Assembly (NCBI GenBank): GCA_965205835.1
Contig: OZ242182.1
Location: forward strand, 1,532,226-1,596,225
DNA from: Nitrospinales bacterium
Lineage (GTDB): Bacteria; Nitrospinota; Nitrospinia; Nitrospinales; VA-1
Direction of reading: 5' to 3'
Length of the DNA: 64,000 bases
A model generated the notes under the pieces. The model worked only from the letters and a program-made list of their open reading frames with translations. It did no database searches and had not been told where the DNA came from. Numbering within the stretch: the stretch's first letter is position 1; the number at the start of each line of letters is the position of its first letter. Both the position numbers and the translations under genes were made by a program. Positions 54,240-61,544 of this stretch are shown in pieces.

Positions 54240-55204
54240 AAGAAAAAGTCCTCTCCGTCCCAACTGCGTTCGGCGCCCCGCTGGAACTTTATAAAAATAC
54301 TTGGGGGAAGTCCGACCACGAAAGCCTTTCTATTGTCAGCGGATTGCAAGGCGACCTTTTGAACGGCATGTATCTAAGTTCGCGCCTGTCGCAGTTTCTC
54401 GACAGCGTGGTCGAAGGCGTCGACCCCAACTACACCCTCAAAGGACAGGTCATCAGTTTCCCGGTAGCCAACCTGAACGCCATTCAATCCGGCTCCAGGT
54501 TATGGCCATACGACGGCATGGATATGGACCTGGCGTTTCCCGGCAACCCCGAAGGTGAAACCAGCGAGGCATTGGCTTCCGCCGTTTATACACATACGGC
54601 GGATTCCTATTGGGGACTCATCCTGCAATCAGCCCCGCCGCATTATGAGGACGCCCTGCATATCCAGGTCACAAAGCTGGACGGAAGAATCAAAAAGCTG
54701 GCCCGCGACCTACAAATCGATACCGTGCGCAAGTTAAATGAAACCTCAAAAGTCAGCTTGTTTCATCAATGGCACGCGCATGACATCATCGCCGCCACCC
54801 TGTCAGCCGGATCTCCCCGGACCCTGAACGTTCAGCAATGCGAGACCCTGTTCCAAGGCATCGTGAATTTTATGGTTGCGGAGAAAATCCTGAAAGATAA
54901 AAGAAAATCAAAGGGAAATACCAAATCCCGATTTTATGAACCGGAGAATGAAGTCGCCGTTATTGCCAGCACAGCAGGGATGTTTCTCAAAGAAGTGGAG
55001 GTGGGAACCGCCGTCCAAGCCGGACAAAAGATAGGAGAAGTCCGCGACATTTATAGCGGTAAAAGACGAGAAGAGATCACAGCAACGACGGACGGGTTTC
55101 TCGTGACGCTAAGGCAACACCCCATTGTTTACGAAAAAGAACCTATTGCCATAATCCTGACCACAAAAAAATCCTGGAGGGAGTATCTCCCCTGGCCAGC
55201 GTGA
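54236..55204 (+). CDS. AstE/AspA-family paralog with substituted metal ligands (probable pseudoenzyme)
   Basis: It is colinear with the upstream paralog, but the ligand positions read IVSGLQGDLLNG (Q38, L41) and WGLILQSAP. The start overlaps the upstream stop (ATGA). Confidence 0.75.
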   Translation: MKEKVLSVPTAFGAPLELYKNTWGKSDHESLSIVSGLQGDLLNGMYLSSRLSQFLDSVVEGVDPNYTLKGQVISFPVANLNAIQSGSRLWPYDGMDMDLAFPGNPEGETSEALASAVYTHTADSYWGLILQSAPPHYEDALHIQVTKLDGRIKKLARDLQIDTVRKLNETSKVSLFHQWHAHDIIAATLSAGSPRTLNVQQCETLFQGIVNFMVAEKILKDKRKSKGNTKSRFYEPENEVAVIASTAGMFLKEVEVGTAVQAGQKIGEVRDIYSGKRREEITATTDGFLVTLRQHPIVYEKEPIAIILTTKKSWREYLPWPA

Positions 55205-55241
55205 AGTCACTGGGCGTGGGGCTAGTGAAAACCTTGAACTT

Positions 55242-55293
55242 CCCCCTGACAAGGGGGATTAAGGGGGGTTGGTTTTTTTGGCTCCCTCTTTTT
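55242..55293 (+). repeat. 52-bp repeat, copy A (inverted partner at 56669-56720)
   Basis: CCCCCTGACAAGGGGGATTAAGGGGGGTTGGTTTTTTTGGCTCCCTCTTTTT contains the hairpin CCCCCT-GACA-AGGGGG. A second hairpin, CCCTCTTT-TTC-AAAGAGGG, follows directly. The repeat lies between two convergent genes, so it probably doubles as a bidirectional terminator. Confidence 0.9.
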
Positions 55294-55317
55294 CAAAGAG
55301 GGCTGGGGTGATTCACC

Positions 55318-56382
55318 TTATTTCATCTCTGGTTCGAGCGGTCGACCGTTTGCTTTTTTCTGCTCAATTTCCTCGACCGCTTTTTCTATGGCGAGAAATC
55401 GCGTGGCTGTTGAGGGGTGGGTACTGCCCTGCAGATTGATGGCATTGGGGTGGGCAGTAGCCATCCTGCGCCACAATGCCGCCGCGCCTTTGACATCATC
55501 ATAACCCGCTTTCGCCGCGTAGTAGGAGCCGACATAATCCGCCTCTGCTTCATATTCCTGCGAGTAGGCCATTGACCCGAGGTCGGCCGCCAAGTTGGAT
55601 GTGTTCACCCCCGTCAATACCAGGACCGTCGCGTCGACCAAGGCCCCCATCACCCGGTTGCCCAATTTGCTAAGAGAATGTCCCATTGTATTGTGTGCCA
55701 TTTCGTGGGCGATCACCAGCGCCAGCTCGTCGTCTGAGTCGACGAATTTCAGCATTCCGGTGGTGATGTATATTTTGTCCCCATCAGCGAAGGCGTTCAC
55801 GTCTTCCGACTCTTTTATCTGGATCGAGGAATAACAGGCTTTCACTCCGTCAATGGTCAGGTCAAGATGCTTCACCCCACGCTGAATCCGCAACTTCAGC
55901 TTTCCACTATCGCCCTTACTCCAGGATTTGACCCGGTCGATCAGGGTGGTAAGTGTGCCTTCTTTTTCTCCATTGACCAGAATGATTTTGTCGCGCACTT
56001 GTAGTCCGGCTCGATCTGCCGGGGTTCCGGCAGGTACTGCTCTAACCGTGAGCTTACCGTCCACACCATAGAGTTTTCCCCAAGCTATTTTAGCGATGTC
56101 ATTATTTATTTTTTCAGGGGCACTGTGGAACCCAGCGTACCAACGGGCATCATCACCACAGTCGTTAGCATTAACCGAGAGCACCGGAAAAGCCACCCGG
56201 CTGAGCCGAGCAGAAAGTTTCACTCTCTCGGTGATGGCGGTTTCCATCTGGCGAAGAGCTTCGGCCCGGGCTTGGTCAGCGTCGATGGTCGGAGTCCGGG
56301 TTTTCGGAGCACAGGCCGATAAAAGAAAAACAGCGACCACAATTACTCCCACTCTATAATTCTGTTTCATGGAACACCTCAA
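55318..56382 (-). CDS. M48-family zinc metallopeptidase lipoprotein with PDZ domain
   Basis: The lipobox is LLSACAP. The PDZ-like segment reads AGLQVRDKIILVNGEK. The motif is HEMAHNTMGH, an HExxH, with a downstream E in YEAEADY. Confidence 0.9.
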   Translation of the reverse strand: MRCSMKQNYRVGVIVVAVFLLSACAPKTRTPTIDADQARAEALRQMETAITERVKLSARLSRVAFPVLSVNANDCGDDARWYAGFHSAPEKINNDIAKIAWGKLYGVDGKLTVRAVPAGTPADRAGLQVRDKIILVNGEKEGTLTTLIDRVKSWSKGDSGKLKLRIQRGVKHLDLTIDGVKACYSSIQIKESEDVNAFADGDKIYITTGMLKFVDSDDELALVIAHEMAHNTMGHSLSKLGNRVMGALVDATVLVLTGVNTSNLAADLGSMAYSQEYEAEADYVGSYYAAKAGYDDVKGAAALWRRMATAHPNAINLQGSTHPSTATRFLAIEKAVEEIEQKKANGRPLEPEMK

Positions 56383-56540
56383 GTCTTAAAATTTCACCCA
56401 TCCTATAAATTTATGCGGCATACGTCAACACAATACCGTAACCCTTCCGGGCATAAAGTTAATGTTGGGAAAATCACAATACAGATGAACAGAGATAAGT
56501 TCTTCCCCTGACAAGGGTAGGTTGGGAGAGGGTTTAGCTT

Positions 56541-56609
56541 GTCATTGCGAGTGCAACGAAGCAATCTAGAGACTGGATCGCCGCACTCCTTTTAGTCGTT
56601 CGCGATGAC
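56541..56609. repeat. Palindromic REP/MITE-like unit
   Basis: GTCATTGCGA (56541-56550) ... TCGCGATGAC (56600-56609) are 10-bp terminal inverted repeats. The architecture matches the element at 642-714. A degenerate direct copy of the 52-bp repeat (about 56507-56535) lies on one side, and inverted copy B lies on the other. Confidence 0.45.
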
Positions 56610-56668
56610 GATTTAAGCAACTCCCTCAGTCCCATCGAACAAAACGTACTCCTAATTGTTCGAGTTTA

Positions 56669-56720
56669 AAAAAGAGGGAGCCAAAAAAACCAACCCCCCT
56701 TAATCCCCCTTGTCAGGGGG
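56669..56720 (-). repeat. 52-bp repeat, copy B (perfect reverse complement of 55242-55293)
   Basis: AAAAAGAGGGAGCCAAAAAAACCAACCCCCCTTAATCCCCCTTGTCAGGGGG is the exact reverse complement of copy A over all 52 positions, checked base by base. Confidence 0.9.
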
Positions 56721-57323
56721 GAGATTATCAATGTATTGCGCTTGAGTGTTCAGTCTGCCTTATGGGCAATGCAGTACTGCCCCAGGCGTGGCCCGGTTAG
56801 ATGTGTATGAGGAAGAGGATCATGCCGCCGAAGCACAGTCCCCCCCCAGAACAGTCATAATGTTTCCCCGCGTGGATTTGGGTTTCATCTCCTCCTTGGT
56901 TTTACCGTAGCGATCGTGCGGGTCTTTAAAGGCTTCCTCATGTGCTTTTTCCCATTTGGCGCATAGACTGAGGATAAAAGAGCTCACAATAGCCATCGCT
57001 ATTGCCTAAACCTGTTCTTCAGCTAAAAAATCCATTCTTTCTCCTTCCACTCGGTGTGAGGCCAAAGGGCAATAACTCGTTGGGTCGAAAATATCTTTGC
57101 TAGCGGTAAAAGGTATTGCTAGTTACTAGCGGAGGTAGTCCGCGCGAAACAATTGGGGTTTCAGGAAAACCCCATCTTCATGAACATGGGGACCGGGCCC
57201 TATTACATCAATTACTTCTTAATAAACAAATAGTTCAGAACCAAAAAAGGTTGCCACCCCTTCGGGTATGGGTTAAGCTTCAATCGAAGTTTCATTGTAA
57301 AACCGTTATTTGGCGGCACCATT

Positions 57324-58019
57324 ATGAACAGCACCAAGACCGAACTGGTCATTGACCAAGAAAATACCGGCTATCGCTATTCCATCGAACCATTTCTGCT
57401 AGCCGATTTCATGCCCTTGTTGCCGGGCCAGTCGGTGCTCGATATCGGCACCGGTTGTGGCATCATTCCTCTTTTGATAGTTCACCGGCAACCGACACTT
57501 GAAGTAACCGCCATTGAAATTCAGGATTGCACCCAGGCACAAAAAAATATTCACAAAAACGCAATGGGTCAGCAGATTTCTCTCATTCAAGGTGATTTCC
57601 TGAAGGAAGCAGAAAACCTGCAGCCTGAATTTTTCGACCATATTGTTTCTAATCCACCTTACCGGAAGGTTCAGACAGGGCGGATCAATCCCGATTCCGG
57701 CAAAGCCCTGGCCCGGCACGAGCTGTCCCTTAGCATGAGTTCCCTGCTGAAGAAATCGGCTCCACTGCTAAAAAAAGGCGGGCAGATAAGCTTGGCCTAT
57801 CCGCCCGAACGACTGAGCGAACTCATGCGGGAACTGGAATGCGGGAGTCTATATCCCAGCCAAGCACGTTTTGTCCATGGCAATTACCGGGCTCCAGCAA
57901 AAATCGTTCTGGTTTCCGCCCTTAAAGAAAAAAAAGCCGATTTTAGCGTGGCCCCGCCGCTGACAGTCTATAATGAGGACGGCACCTATTCAAAAGAGAC
58001 GGAGAACCTCCGCAGGTGA
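57324..58019 (+). CDS. tRNA1(Val) (adenine37-N6)-methyltransferase-like (TrmN6/YfiC family)
   Basis: YRYSIEPFLLADF ... VLDIGTGCGIIPL ... the catalytic VSNPPYRK motif ... ARHE, over 231 aa. Confidence 0.8.
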   Translation: MNSTKTELVIDQENTGYRYSIEPFLLADFMPLLPGQSVLDIGTGCGIIPLLIVHRQPTLEVTAIEIQDCTQAQKNIHKNAMGQQISLIQGDFLKEAENLQPEFFDHIVSNPPYRKVQTGRINPDSGKALARHELSLSMSSLLKKSAPLLKKGGQISLAYPPERLSELMRELECGSLYPSQARFVHGNYRAPAKIVLVSALKEKKADFSVAPPLTVYNEDGTYSKETENLRR

Positions 58020-58107
58020 CTGGCAATAGCTTTAAACTGAAGGCAAACGTTTTCCCGGCTGAACGAGCCAGCTACCTGCCTCTACGGCGAGTGGATGCGA
58101 AAAATTT

Positions 58108-61100
58108 ATGCTTCCTCTAATTATATTAACCGGCCCAACGAATTCGGGAAAAAGTGAAACCGCTCTGGCCCTGGCCCGGAAGCTGAACACAGAAATCATC
58201 AGTGCTGATTCGTTGCAGGTCTATAAATATTTTGATATTGGCACCGCGAAACCTCTGCAGGTGGTAAGAGAGGATATCCCGCATCACTTGATCGATGTTC
58301 TCGAACCTGATGAAGAGTTTAACGCCTTCGATTTTAAAACACGGGCCTTGGAAATCATTCGCGAACTCATGAATCGTAATAAAATTCCTATTCTGGTTGG
58401 CGGCACCGGACTCTACATAAAAGTCCTGACAGAAGATTACGATTGCGCCGAAGGAGCCTCTCCCGAAATCCGGGAAAAAATCAGGGATGACATTCGTGAC
58501 CAAGGAGTTGAAAAAGTTTATCAGGAACTCCAACGCGTTGATCCTGAATACGCCACAAAAATTTCCGAAACAGATTCCCTGCGCATCGAACGGGCTTTAG
58601 GGGTTTATCTCGACACGGGAAAACGTTTTTCGGAATTTCATGAAAGCGACTTCCCGACCGCAAACCAATTCCCCATCCACACCTTCATTCTGGAAAGAGA
58701 CAGGGCCGAGCTGTATTCACAAATCGATCAGCGTGTGGATAAAATGATTGAGGACGGATTTGCCCGAGAAGTTCAAAGTATTTTGGAGCGTGGTTACAGT
58801 CCGGACCTGAAACCCTGCAGAAGCATCGGTTACGCACAAATGATTCAATACCATCAAGGCCAGTTGGATATGGACCGTGCCACCTATGAGGTTAAAAGAG
58901 AAACCCGGCATTACGCCAAAAGACAGTTGACCTGGTTCAGAAAAATGAATAACGCCAATAAACTGTCGGTGGACTCCAAAGACACACCCAAAACCATGGC
59001 GGATAAACTGCTTTCTCTTCTACCCAAAGTCGCCGCCTGCTTTTTGGTACTGCTCTTGGGCTTTGCGCAAACAGGCGAAGCCAGATCTACGCACTATGAG
59101 AAGGCTAAAAAATTTTTCCAGAAAAAAGATTGGGGCAAGGCTAAAAACAGCCTTCTGGCTCTACAAAATCAAAAACCAGGTTCAATAGAAGCCAAACGTG
59201 CCCGGTTTTTACTCGCTCTCATTCACGCCGAACAGGGGAAGCCGGAGGAAGCCATAAAGCTTCTCGAACCGTTGAGCGAAAATTATAAAGAGGTGGAAGA
59301 TTATATCCGCTTCCATTTAATCCAGGCACAGGCACAAGCAGGCAAACATGAAAAAGCCCGCGACAACGCTCTCGAACTCCTCAAGCACAGTCCCAACACC
59401 CTTCTCTATGCCAAGCTCCATCTGATTCTTGCCGAAGTACAAACTCAGCTAAAGAAAAAAGAAGCCGCAATCAAAACGTTGGAAGGAGCAATCCGGTCGA
59501 TCACCAAGGATTTCAGCCGCCGCAAGTTTCGCGAATTTCTGCCTGACCTGATTTTCCAACTAGCCCGGACCCAGAAACAGTCCGGAAAGCAAACCGAAGC
59601 TTATTTGAATTTTCGCAAACTTCACATCCAATATCCAAACCATGATCAAACGCCCGAGGCTGAAATGGCACTCAAGCGCCTGTCAGCTTTGGCAACGGTT
59701 AAAGAGATCCCACTAACTTTAAGAGAGTACACCAACCGCATTCAAGGAATGTTTGAAAACGTGCGCTACCAGGAAATCATTCAGGAAGTCCAGACACTGC
59801 AAAAAGAAAAAGATCTTTTACCGGGGCGGTTTTATTTTTTCCTGGCCCGGGCGCATGGAGGACTTAGAGATCGTAAAAAAGCCAACAAAGTTTTAAAACA
59901 ATTTTTGAAAACATATCCTCACCACGCCAAGGTGCAAAACGCCAAATTTGACATCGGCAGAAACCTTTGGAACCTGGGCCAGCCAATGGCTGGGGCAAAA
60001 TATTTTAAGGAAATCACTCAGGACGTCCCTTCAACAGAATTGGCGATGAAGGCGCAGTTTTTTCTCGGAAAGATTTATGAAGAACGCAAAAACTTTCCTG
60101 AAGCACTGAGAAACTACAAGACCGCTTTGGAAAAATATCCCAGTGAAAGTTATGCGCAGTGGGCCGGCTGGCGACTGGGTTGGGTCCATTATCTCGATGG
60201 AAAATTTGAGCAAGCCTTCAACAGGTTCCAAGACGCGGCCAACCGATTTCCTAATAAATCGTTTATTGAATACAACTTGTATTGGAGTGCCAAGTCGGCA
60301 GAAAAACTGGAAAAAAAAGATGTGGCCCGCGATTTGTATGCTAAAGTCGCTGAGCTTTACCCCTACACGTTTCACGGCATCCGCGCTAAAGACAGGCTCT
60401 TGACCCTGGATGTCAAGGGTGTCAAACTAGATACGGTTCTTGCAAATCAAACACCGTCTTCCAAAGAAGAAAACCCGCAACTGGGACGGCCTCTCAGCGA
60501 GCGGGAAAAGTTTCATCACATCCGAGCCACCGAACTGGCTACGCTTGGGTTGACACAGGAAGCACGCATCGAAATTGGAGAGTTGCAAAAAACAGTGCGG
60601 AAGAACCTGACCGGGGTTTTGTGGCTTTCCCAGCTTTATCATCAGGCACAAGGCTATGCGGAATCACTCAGGCTTTTACACCTATACAAGGACTTCACCA
60701 CCAAACCCAAAGAGAAAAATCTTTCTTCAAAATTCTGGAAGCATTTTTTCCCTCTCGCCTACGAAGAAGCAATTCTGACCTATGCCAATTCACGCAGGGT
60801 CGACCCATTTTTCGTGAGTGGCATTATCCGTCAAGAAAGTTTTTTTGACAGTCAGGCACTTTCCCCTGCCGGTGCTCGCGGGCTCATGCAAATCATGCCA
60901 GCCACCGGGGAAAGACTTTACCCGAAAACAAAATTGAAAAAACCTTTTGAGACCGATGTCCTCTTTGATCCAGATATGAACATCCAGCTGGGTGTGAAAT
61001 ATGTCAGTCTGTTGAACAAACGGTTCAACAAAAACGGAATGCATATTCTGATTTCATACAACGCCGGGCCTCATATCCTGAAAAAATGGCTGAAACAATT

Positions 61101-61221
61101 CGGACATTTGAGTGATCAGGACGTATTCATAGAATCCATCCCTTACTCAGAAACTCGCCGCTATGTCAAGTATGTGCTGAGAAATATGGGGATATATAAA
61201 GCACTATATTCTCCCTCCTGA
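58108..61221 (+). CDS. miaA: Single ORF fusing tRNA dimethylallyltransferase (MiaA, aa 1-296) to a signal/TM segment plus an Slt70-like soluble lytic transglycosylase (aa 297-1037)
   Basis: The N-terminus reads LIILTGPTNSGKSETALALARKLNTEIISADSLQVYKYFDIGTAKP ... YAKRQLTWFRK, which is MiaA. The in-frame ATG at 58996 opens MADKLLSLLPKVAACFLVLLLGFAQTGEA, a signal-peptide-like segment. TPR/superhelical repeats follow. The C-terminal SLT domain reads GIIRQESFFDSQALSPAGARGLMQIMPATG ... YNAGP. Confidence 0.85.
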   Translation: MLPLIILTGPTNSGKSETALALARKLNTEIISADSLQVYKYFDIGTAKPLQVVREDIPHHLIDVLEPDEEFNAFDFKTRALEIIRELMNRNKIPILVGGTGLYIKVLTEDYDCAEGASPEIREKIRDDIRDQGVEKVYQELQRVDPEYATKISETDSLRIERALGVYLDTGKRFSEFHESDFPTANQFPIHTFILERDRAELYSQIDQRVDKMIEDGFAREVQSILERGYSPDLKPCRSIGYAQMIQYHQGQLDMDRATYEVKRETRHYAKRQLTWFRKMNNANKLSVDSKDTPKTMADKLLSLLPKVAACFLVLLLGFAQTGEARSTHYEKAKKFFQKKDWGKAKNSLLALQNQKPGSIEAKRARFLLALIHAEQGKPEEAIKLLEPLSENYKEVEDYIRFHLIQAQAQAGKHEKARDNALELLKHSPNTLLYAKLHLILAEVQTQLKKKEAAIKTLEGAIRSITKDFSRRKFREFLPDLIFQLARTQKQSGKQTEAYLNFRKLHIQYPNHDQTPEAEMALKRLSALATVKEIPLTLREYTNRIQGMFENVRYQEIIQEVQTLQKEKDLLPGRFYFFLARAHGGLRDRKKANKVLKQFLKTYPHHAKVQNAKFDIGRNLWNLGQPMAGAKYFKEITQDVPSTELAMKAQFFLGKIYEERKNFPEALRNYKTALEKYPSESYAQWAGWRLGWVHYLDGKFEQAFNRFQDAANRFPNKSFIEYNLYWSAKSAEKLEKKDVARDLYAKVAELYPYTFHGIRAKDRLLTLDVKGVKLDTVLANQTPSSKEENPQLGRPLSEREKFHHIRATELATLGLTQEARIEIGELQKTVRKNLTGVLWLSQLYHQAQGYAESLRLLHLYKDFTTKPKEKNLSSKFWKHFFPLAYEEAILTYANSRRVDPFFVSGIIRQESFFDSQALSPAGARGLMQIMPATGERLYPKTKLKKPFETDVLFDPDMNIQLGVKYVSLLNKRFNKNGMHILISYNAGPHILKKWLKQFGHLSDQDVFIESIPYSETRRYVKYVLRNMGIYKALYSPS

Positions 61222-61275: not shown

Positions 61276-61509
61276 TTGAAAGAGCCTTTCATGAAATTAA
61301 AAGTCCGCTTACAAGAAATTGAAGATTATTCACTGGAGAGCACGAAACCGTTTGCCCGGAACTCTCTGAAAGCCCTAGGCCCTGAAGCATCCCCGTTCGG
61401 CCGAGGTCAGAGGGTTCTTTTGGAACCTAATCTTTTGCGAGGGTTCAAACTCGAACGCCGTATCACCACCCACCCTGTGGTGGTGGAAACCTGGGTTCTT
61501 AAGGATTGA
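61276..61509 (+). pseudogene. DUF362-domain gene fragment (N-terminal ~77 aa only)
   Basis: GQRVLLEPNLLRGFKLERRITTHPVVVET matches the N-terminal DUF362 pattern (VLIKPNL ... TTHP.VV). Full-length members are several-fold longer. The fragment ends 36 nt before the convergent arsR-family gene. Confidence 0.4.
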
Positions 61510-61544
61510 TCGCCCAGTCAACCTATTGCAAGCTGCCCCCACGG

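Follow-up and report, generated by a model that had tools for sequence, protein, structure and literature searches.

In a 64,000-nucleotide stretch of a Nitrospinales bacterium genome (GenBank assembly GCA_965205835.1, contig OZ242182.1, positions 1,532,226 to 1,596,225; hereafter the window), one open reading frame (ORF) at 58108..61221 on the + strand (1037 aa and a stop codon) joins the tRNA dimethylallyltransferase MiaA in frame to a lytic transglycosylase of the Slt70 type. The ORF has three parts: a complete MiaA (residues 1-306), a single hydrophobic segment (residues 307-325) and a Slt70-like lytic transglycosylase (residues 328-1037). We conclude, with very little doubt, that this MiaA-Slt fusion is an old and selectively maintained feature of Nitrospinales. 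The new element is the conserved fusion across two compartments through what appears to be a retained signal peptide; both enzymes are ordinary. Full-text searches of the literature library used found no description of a MiaA-Slt fusion architecture.

Domain architecture of the fusion protein

The ORF had been noticed in an earlier sequence-only reading of the window. The ORF listing confirmed all of its sequence-level statements, namely the 1037-aa frame at 58108-61221, the motif positions, and a TAA in another frame at 59004-59006 beside the in-frame ATG at 58996-58998. Pfam and NCBIfam likewise confirmed the order it proposed, a complete MiaA followed by tetratricopeptide repeat (TPR)-like repeats and a C-terminal SLT domain.

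The MiaA module (58108..59025, +) was identified by TIGR00174 and Pfam IPPT, by structure prediction, and by its conservation and ratio of nonsynonymous to synonymous substitution rates (dN/dS). The TIGR00174 miaA equivalog scored 300.3 bits against a cutoff of 148.65, with profile positions 1-281 of 288 aligned to residues 4-284, and IPPT matched residues 37-279 (E 5e-83). The P-loop GPTNSGKS (pattern GPTxxGKS/T) occupies residues 9-16 (58132-58155, +), and the motif YAKRQLTWFRK lies at residues 269-279. The junction stretch MADKLLSLLPKVAACFLVLLLGFAQTGEA corresponds to residues 297-325.

Residues 328-880 (59089..60747, +) form an alpha-superhelical TPR-like region, the counterpart of the U and L domains in Slt70. 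Numerous Pfam TPR families matched between MiaA and SLT, spanning about residues 320-760, and PF27553 (SLT_superhelical) is a precomputed annotation on orthologues of the fusion protein. The SLT catalytic domain of family GH23 follows at residues 889-1005 (60772..61122, +; Pfam SLT E 1e-26, 93 bits against a cutoff of 21.3). In PDB sequence searches it matched Slt70 (1qsa) and Pseudomonas aeruginosa Slt (6fbt) with E of about 1e-26. It carries RQES at 908-911, GLMQIMP at 925-931 and YNAGP at 984-988, and the catalytic Glu910 (60835-60837, +) lies within RQES. The NCBIfam Slt70 equivalog PRK11619 reached 122 bits against a cutoff of 536, with the catalytic domain alone matching, and the profile of the flagellar lytic transglycosylase BB0259 reached 173.8 against 234. 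Because the score falls under the Slt70 equivalog cutoff, we call this half Slt70-like rather than a Slt70 orthologue; judged by these profiles, it is Slt70-like in architecture and outside the Slt70 equivalog family.

The AlphaFold2 model of the whole fusion protein had a mean predicted local distance difference test (pLDDT) score of 83. It shows a MiaA fold at residues 1-304 and, from residue 328, an all-alpha superhelix with the catalytic domain. A Foldseek search against the PDB retrieved Escherichia coli MiaA (2zm5_A, a tRNA complex, and 3foz) with a TMt of 0.78-0.80, E of about 5e-15 and 36% identity. It also retrieved full-length Slt70 (1qte) over 707 aligned columns with a TMt of 0.63; P. 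aeruginosa Slt and Neisseria LtgA were further matches. Sequence similarity to the solved Slt enzymes is limited to the catalytic domain.

Conservation of the fusion across Nitrospinales

A search of 5.8 billion clustered proteins gave 245 matches at E<=1e-10. Among the best 120, which were listed, 115 were orthologues of 998-1058 aa in which the fusion is unbroken (query coverage 96-100%, identity from 90% down to 45%). The other five were shorter gene calls, and the one inspected, P0076 (877 aa), was broken inside MiaA. The closest orthologue, P0001, is 90% identical over 100% of the length; the nearest relative, at 90% identity, is in GCA_001542995.1, and an exact look-up of the 1037-aa window protein returned no record. 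An exhaustive HMMER scan of 1.84 billion representative proteins found fused clusters at 50% identity with about 14 representatives, whose identity to the query extends down to 38%. Ranking below them were unfused TPR-SLT proteins (~730-760 aa, ~30% identity) and unfused MiaA proteins (~310 aa, 40-51%). Overall, more than 130 full-length fused orthologues from independent assemblies were collected, spanning 90% to 38% identity, and their named sources are solely Nitrospina, Nitrospinae, Nitrospinaceae, Nitrospinales and Nitrospinota. The fusion is present on megabase-scale contigs of 2.3, 3.25 and 3.37 Mb. A scan of a genome collection, of little taxonomic breadth, added at least three fused loci among the 80 loci listed.

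Selection was assessed by the Nei-Gojobori method on three locus pairs (window/L083, L003/L082 and window/L001). In the window/L001 pair dS was saturated in most segments, and the ranges given here are taken from the other two. The dN/dS was 0.13-0.24 for MiaA, 0.25-0.39 for the junction (48 codons), 0.18-0.21 for the TPR region and 0.06-0.18 for SLT, that is, below 0.5 in all segments including the junction. Among 33 diverse fused orthologues, the MiaA P-loop residues G9, P10, T11, S13, K15 and S16 hardly vary, many MiaA core residues do not vary at all, and E910, S911, G925, M927, Q928, Y984, N985, A986 and G987 of the SLT domain are invariant. Motif invariance and purifying selection together indicate that both halves are functional genes in a common frame.

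These data bear on two of the three explanations that the sequence-only reading had considered, a sequencing error and, its preferred option, a recent fusion by loss of the stop codon. An assembly error or a recent, pseudogene-like stop loss peculiar to a decaying genome would fit the signs of decay and rearrangement in the window, with a deletion of ~930 bp in a DUF362 gene and a 96-bp insertion upstream of miaA, and one related metagenome-assembled genome (MAG) does have a break inside MiaA. However, the same continuous frame in more than 130 independently assembled orthologues and about 14 clusters, down to 38% identity, with dN/dS below 1 over the junction and a conserved junction motif, refutes both an error and a recent event. 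The fusion is thus not unique to this assembly, nor are the orthologous loci all two-gene loci, and explanations of this kind retain practically no probability.

In the Nitrospinaceae MAG GCA_016763735.1 (L084, 3459-6562), the fused gene is called in pieces of 143 aa and 877 aa, split within the MiaA half. The split may reflect a frameshift or a stop codon in the MAG, or MiaA may truly have been lost; the MiaA-Slt junction itself stays intact.

Probable origin from an overlapping gene pair

The unfused arrangement was found in four loci (L086-L089), in which a methyltransferase gene, miaA (310-315 aa) and a TPR-SLT gene (744-761 aa) follow one another as separate genes. Between the miaA stop and the slt start there is an overlap of 11 nt in L086 and of 17 nt in L087-L089, and the Slt proteins have their own N-terminal signal peptide. 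The MiaA of L086 (P0147, 50% identity) is among the closest stand-alone MiaAs; it is followed by the separate 744-aa TPR-SLT and preceded by a methyltransferase with an MTS domain. By neighbour-joining distance, the three nearest unfused MiaAs include P0279, which L087-L089 encode. A protein named as Nitrospinae/Nitrospinota shares a 90%-identity cluster with a NifU neighbouring the unfused loci, and we tentatively assign these contigs to a deep-branching Nitrospinota lineage. The nearest unfused Slt homologue, P0142 (locus L081), also comes from a MAG labelled 'Nitrospinota bacterium'. No miaA was seen beside it, in an upstream sequence consisting of 267 bp of AT-rich non-coding DNA before the contig ends. 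Two unfused TPR-SLT loci from other phyla (L022 and L048) had no miaA within 6 kb.

Fused loci (L082, L083, L084) as well as unfused ones (L086-L088) have the MTS-domain methyltransferase immediately upstream, and the same gene precedes miaA-slt in the window. There, at 57324..58019 (+), this conserved partner in the operon encodes a class I methyltransferase with an NPPY motif (TrmN/HemK-like); its best NCBIfam match, TrmN, scored 73.9 bits, far under the cutoff of 350. Whether built from MiaA or from Slt, neighbour-joining trees grouped the 25 fused representatives as monophyletic, with no unfused sequence nested among them. The simplest history is a single fusion of the overlapping gene pair in an ancestor of Nitrospinales with no later fission among the sampled sequences, and the fusion most likely arose from the overlapping stop and start within the operon. 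The overlapping two-gene origin proposed in the sequence-only reading holds in that the ancestral arrangement persists in L086-L089, but the event was ancient and not recent.

Downstream of slt, an Amidohydro_3 gene is found in unfused Nitrospinota (L081, 2495-4078; L087, 4056-5690), and the fused Nitrospinales gene is followed by DUF362, an ArsR-type regulator and an extracytoplasmic function (ECF) sigma/anti-sigma pair. With these differing 3' neighbours, downstream synteny is not shared between the fused and unfused states.

The junction helix and internal initiation

The MiaA half ends in a C-terminal helix with a helix breaker, D292-T-P-x-x-L-x-D-K-L-L-S-x-L-P306 (58981..59025, +), and the structure model places a helix at 294-304 within this conserved motif. 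Its conservation was measured over 134 fused sequences, the set used for all junction counts below: D292 is found in 129, L297 in 117, K300 in 119, L302 in 123, L305 in 123 and P306 in 129. The consensus D292-[TS]-P-x-x-L-x-[DE]-K-[LI]-L-S-x-L-P306 aligns with the C-terminal helix or tail of the stand-alone MiaAs P0147, P0150 and that of L087.

Within this helix lies the ATG at 58996..58998 (+), encoding Met297, from which the sequence-only reading had suggested that a separate Slt could be made. If Slt were initiated internally (at ATG 58996 in the window), one ORF would yield two proteins and the read-through fusion would be minor or irrelevant. The window protein and its closest relatives P0001, P0277 and P0278 do have this in-frame ATG eleven codons ahead of the hydrophobic core, and an acceptable signal peptide would result from MADKLLSLLPK with the h-region behind it. 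Residue 297 is, however, Met in only 4 of the 134 sequences, against Leu in 117 and Ile in 12, and the equivalent codon is CTT or CTG in L001-L003. Met297 is thus, as judged from the alignment, a clade-specific Leu-to-Met change peculiar to the window's own small clade. Across seven loci, no start-like codon or Shine-Dalgarno-like motif was conserved near the junction, and L002 lacks ATG, GTG and TTG altogether from residue 280 to residue 313. Nor was there a Shine-Dalgarno-like motif upstream of ATG 58996. Because the accepted gene starts of the window themselves show only weak motifs of this kind, which are weak genome-wide, their absence at the junction is not decisive, and the missing start codons are the stronger argument. 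Moreover, under internal initiation a miaA stop would not be selected against, yet none occurs at the junction in the sampled lineages. We therefore rejected the internal ATG as the general start of Slt. Internal initiation may contribute in the window's own clade; it cannot be the general solution, and as an account of the locus it is improbable.

The junction region was also scanned with consensus patterns for an internal promoter or terminator. Sites were no more frequent than in shuffled sequence, and an internal promoter or terminator was rejected on this ground; the lack of an excess of promoter-like sites also counts against independent initiation of Slt.

The hydrophobic segment as a probable internal export signal

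Directly after Pro306 comes the hydrophobic segment KVAACFLVLLLGFAQTGEA (residues 307-325; 59026..59082, +), marked by its hydropathy, its core length and its small -3/-1 residues. The Kyte-Doolittle maximum of the whole window protein falls here, in the 19-residue window starting at residue 301. The large majority of 116 sequences likewise had their maximum at the junction (window starts 266-319, N-terminally truncated gene calls included), with a mean of 2.06 compared with 1.00 for the second-best window. One dominant hydrophobic window points to a single membrane-active segment in the fusion protein. The hydropathy maximum and the -3/-1 residues thereby bear out the segment resembling a signal peptide or transmembrane helix that the sequence-only reading had picked out. 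In the structure model it appears as a 12-residue helix at 307-318 of low confidence (pLDDT below 50).

Several features are those of a Sec signal peptide, whose pattern of an h-region of ~7-15 residues followed by a c-region with small -3/-1 residues fits segment 307-325. The apolar core has a median of 14 aa (range 9-24) in the 134 fused proteins, and the signal-peptide core in 51 unfused homologues also has a median of 14 aa (Mann-Whitney p=0.88). To span the bilayer stably, a segment would need an apolar stretch of ~18-20 residues or longer. Of the 134 fused sequences, 126 have a small -3/-1 site and 120 carry A, S, T or G in column 325. Two candidate sites for signal peptidase I can be marked in the window protein, GFA|Q with the cut after A320 and GEA|R with the cut after A325. 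The alignment of unfused homologues begins near query residue 323, at their own residue ~27, which places the fused hydrophobic segment where they have their N-terminal signal peptide. Its position is atypical for a Sec signal peptide, since it starts at residue 307, after a complete MiaA, and not at the polypeptide N-terminus. On this alignment and composition, segment 307-325 probably preserves the h- and c-regions that the Slt signal peptide had before the fusion and now provides an export signal inside the chain.

A cut by signal peptidase I behind Ala320 or Ala325 is predicted with a slight leaning in its favour, because a cleavable-signal-peptide length and a c-region have been kept over deep divergence and because Slt70-type enzymes are soluble. 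A lipoprotein reading of VAAC (308-311) was rejected: a lipobox, [LVI][ASTVI][GAS]C, would close the h-region with a conserved Cys, but this motif lies at the start of the core and not at its end, and Cys311 is found in only 70 of the 134 sequences.

Several points weigh against an internal, probably cleaved export signal. The protein, its topology and its cleavage are all read from sequence, and the signal-peptide call rests on hydropathy and on the -3/-1 rule, which is permissive. Lys and Arg are similarly frequent on both flanks (2.7 and 2.5 per 15 residues), so that the positive-inside rule leaves the orientation unfixed. In the window protein an Arg directly follows the GEA site, and an Arg after the cleavage site is unfavourable for export or cleavage in E. 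coli. Finally, for the window's own clade, in which an ATG is present, the lack of a Shine-Dalgarno motif counts little against internal initiation.

The same ancient fusion could instead carry an uncleaved signal anchor, giving a bitopic protein of ~115 kDa with MiaA on the cytoplasmic face and the Slt70-like enzyme on the periplasmic face of the membrane. The single hydrophobic segment between two folded enzymes agrees with this arrangement. The helix and Pro306 just before the segment are strikingly conserved and could mean a defined juxtamembrane geometry; the architecture has persisted with zero fissions among more than 130 sequences; and bacterial type II proteins often have large N-terminal cytoplasmic domains. 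Against an anchor, the median core is as short as that of unfused signal peptides and under the ~20 aa of a typical transmembrane helix, the small -1/-3 residues are kept though the segment otherwise varies freely, and both E. coli Slt70 and the enzymes structurally related to it are soluble and periplasmic. We regard an uncleaved anchor as the main rival, possible but less favoured; if true, it would make coupling or co-localisation of both activities possible. The bitopic fusion protein was the remaining explanation offered by the sequence-only reading. Of its three it is the best supported, as the fusion is real, while the topology is a prediction and the uncleaved form stands as a rival to cleavage.

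Neighbouring changes in the window and other MiaA fusions

Just upstream of the miaA start, the window has a 96-bp insertion (57998-58093) that is missing from the relatives L083, L084 and L001 and occurs as a single copy in the window. It gives an early stop to the methyltransferase (231 aa, compared with 243-245 aa in relatives) and parts the methyltransferase gene from miaA, which overlap by 50 nt in relatives. The interval 57990-58107, which holds the insertion, has a moderate predicted RNA fold (-35.2 kcal/mol, z -2.06). Downstream of the fusion gene, the DUF362 gene (61291-61533; ORF 61276-61509) is cut to its first ~83 codons. In relatives DUF362 has 323-327 aa (L082 and L083) or 267 aa (L084), and ~930 bp of L083 9389-10333 are missing in the window. 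The gene decay noted for the window in the sequence-only reading is borne out locally by this reduction.

Further upstream, window 55197-56796 and L083 2418-4887 do not align. The L083 block holds a HicAB toxin-antitoxin pair, a DUF4145 gene and small ORFs; the window has instead ~1.6 kb of unrelated DNA with a gene for an M48-type metalloprotease (55318-56382, -), which showed weak PDZ-type protease matches.

Two other MiaA fusions were encountered. An in-frame MiaA-Hfq ORF of 398 aa (IPPT 34-279, Hfq 323-381) lies at 6001-7197 of L038, on the Peptococcia bacterium chromosome OZ245787.1. The genes miaA and hfq are classical neighbours, and this ORF is a candidate for either a real fusion or a frame error. 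On L090 (3943-5340; P0268, Logan SRR22388125), an unrelated MiaA is followed in frame by a signal-peptide-like segment (NTFICMAFLFALCFGLNA|EE) and an SLH domain, giving a 465-aa ORF downstream of mutL on a singleton contig. This ORF is perhaps a hint of a general proneness of the 3' end of miaA to fuse with a downstream gene for a secreted protein, or it may be an assembly error.

Discussion

A mechanism can be proposed from these observations. An ancestral Nitrospinales operon of methyltransferase, miaA and slt genes, with the miaA stop overlapping the slt start, would have lost the miaA stop, so that both frames became one. From the Slt signal peptide the charged n-region would have disappeared, with the h-region and the small-x-small c-region kept straight after the last MiaA helix. 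The fusion gene would be translated as a single polypeptide whose MiaA part (residues 1-306) folds in the cytoplasm, and segment 307-325 would engage Sec, serving as an export signal of the internal, type II kind (N-in/C-out). Translocation would then bring the Slt70-like lytic transglycosylase of 712 residues into the periplasm, where it would act on peptidoglycan. A cut by signal peptidase I after Ala320 or Ala325 would release a soluble periplasmic Slt, as for E. coli Slt70. MiaA would stay on the inner membrane face by a short C-terminal hydrophobic tail, from which it might later be freed by signal-peptide degradation. Taken as a whole, this combination of an old fusion, an internal export signal and likely cleavage has, in our judgement, an even chance of being correct. 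If cleavage occurs, the fusion would act as a two-enzyme polyprotein, implying no functional link between tRNA modification and the cell wall.

A functional reading of the fusion was also considered, in which it is kept as a trans-membrane unit, with the i6A37 enzyme held opposite a peptidoglycan-cleaving enzyme, either uncleaved or with its halves remaining associated. The unusually conserved junction helix and Pro306, and the absence of fission in more than 130 sequences, make such a unit compatible with the data, but nothing supports it positively, and to our knowledge there is no link between tRNA dimethylallylation and lytic transglycosylase activities. We consider it unlikely. If true, cell-wall turnover or growth sites would be tied to translational capacity or to the state of tRNA modification; in another version, export or activity of the lytic transglycosylase might be under the control of MiaA or of its membrane tether.

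Each half resembles a well-characterised enzyme. Like E. coli MiaA (2ZM5, 3FOZ), residues 1-306 form a complete MiaA with a P-loop and the same fold. Stand-alone MiaA, in contrast, is soluble, has ~310 aa and ends after its helix, whereas here the helix continues via a near-invariant Pro into the export segment and 712 further residues. With E. coli Slt70 and P. aeruginosa Slt (family 1A; 1QSA/1QTE, 5OHU/6FBT), the C-terminal half shares a GH23 SLT domain with Glu-Ser, an alpha-superhelix and a module of ~700 residues, but its superhelix is longer with recognisable TPR repeats, and its signal peptide is internal rather than N-terminal. The unfused methyltransferase-miaA-slt loci (L086-L089) have the same gene order and a TPR-SLT of the same architecture at ~30% identity; they differ in having two genes and a Slt with an n-region of its own (e.g. 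MSYTNKSEDRRRKTED...) ahead of the h-region.

We know of few bacterial precedents for polyproteins with an internal signal peptide. The Bradyrhizobium japonicum FbcH cytochrome b/c1 precursor is reportedly one ORF giving two proteins through an internal, signal-peptide-like processing site, as described by Thony-Meyer et al. in 1991. We propose it as a mechanistic analogue, in which an internal signal would likewise direct export of the downstream half. The halves of FbcH, however, are subunits of one complex and its upstream half is itself a membrane protein, whereas here the enzymes are unrelated, the upstream half is a soluble cytoplasmic one and cleavage is a prediction. Bitopic type II proteins such as PknB-type kinases, ToxR/CadC and RodZ combine a cytoplasmic enzyme or regulatory domain with an extracytoplasmic domain. 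They share with the fusion an N-in cytoplasmic domain, one hydrophobic segment and an exported C-terminal domain; unlike it, they have full-length transmembrane helices and a functional logic across the membrane, and the segment here is of signal-peptide length.

In databases, these 1030-1050-aa proteins are named plainly 'MiaA' and in one case 'tetratricopeptide repeat protein'. Such labels hide the locus's only Slt70-like lytic transglycosylase module and the predicted membrane link of MiaA in these marine nitrite oxidisers, a group of ecological importance. The fusion also cautions against guilt-by-fusion inference, since two enzymes without a known functional relation and from different compartments are fused across a whole order. 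The ancestral two-gene state and the fused state are both on hand for comparing how such a fusion evolves. As an order-wide natural case of a soluble cytoplasmic enzyme placed upstream of a retained signal peptide, it raises the question of whether bacterial Sec and signal peptidase I can routinely resolve polyproteins with an internal signal peptide.

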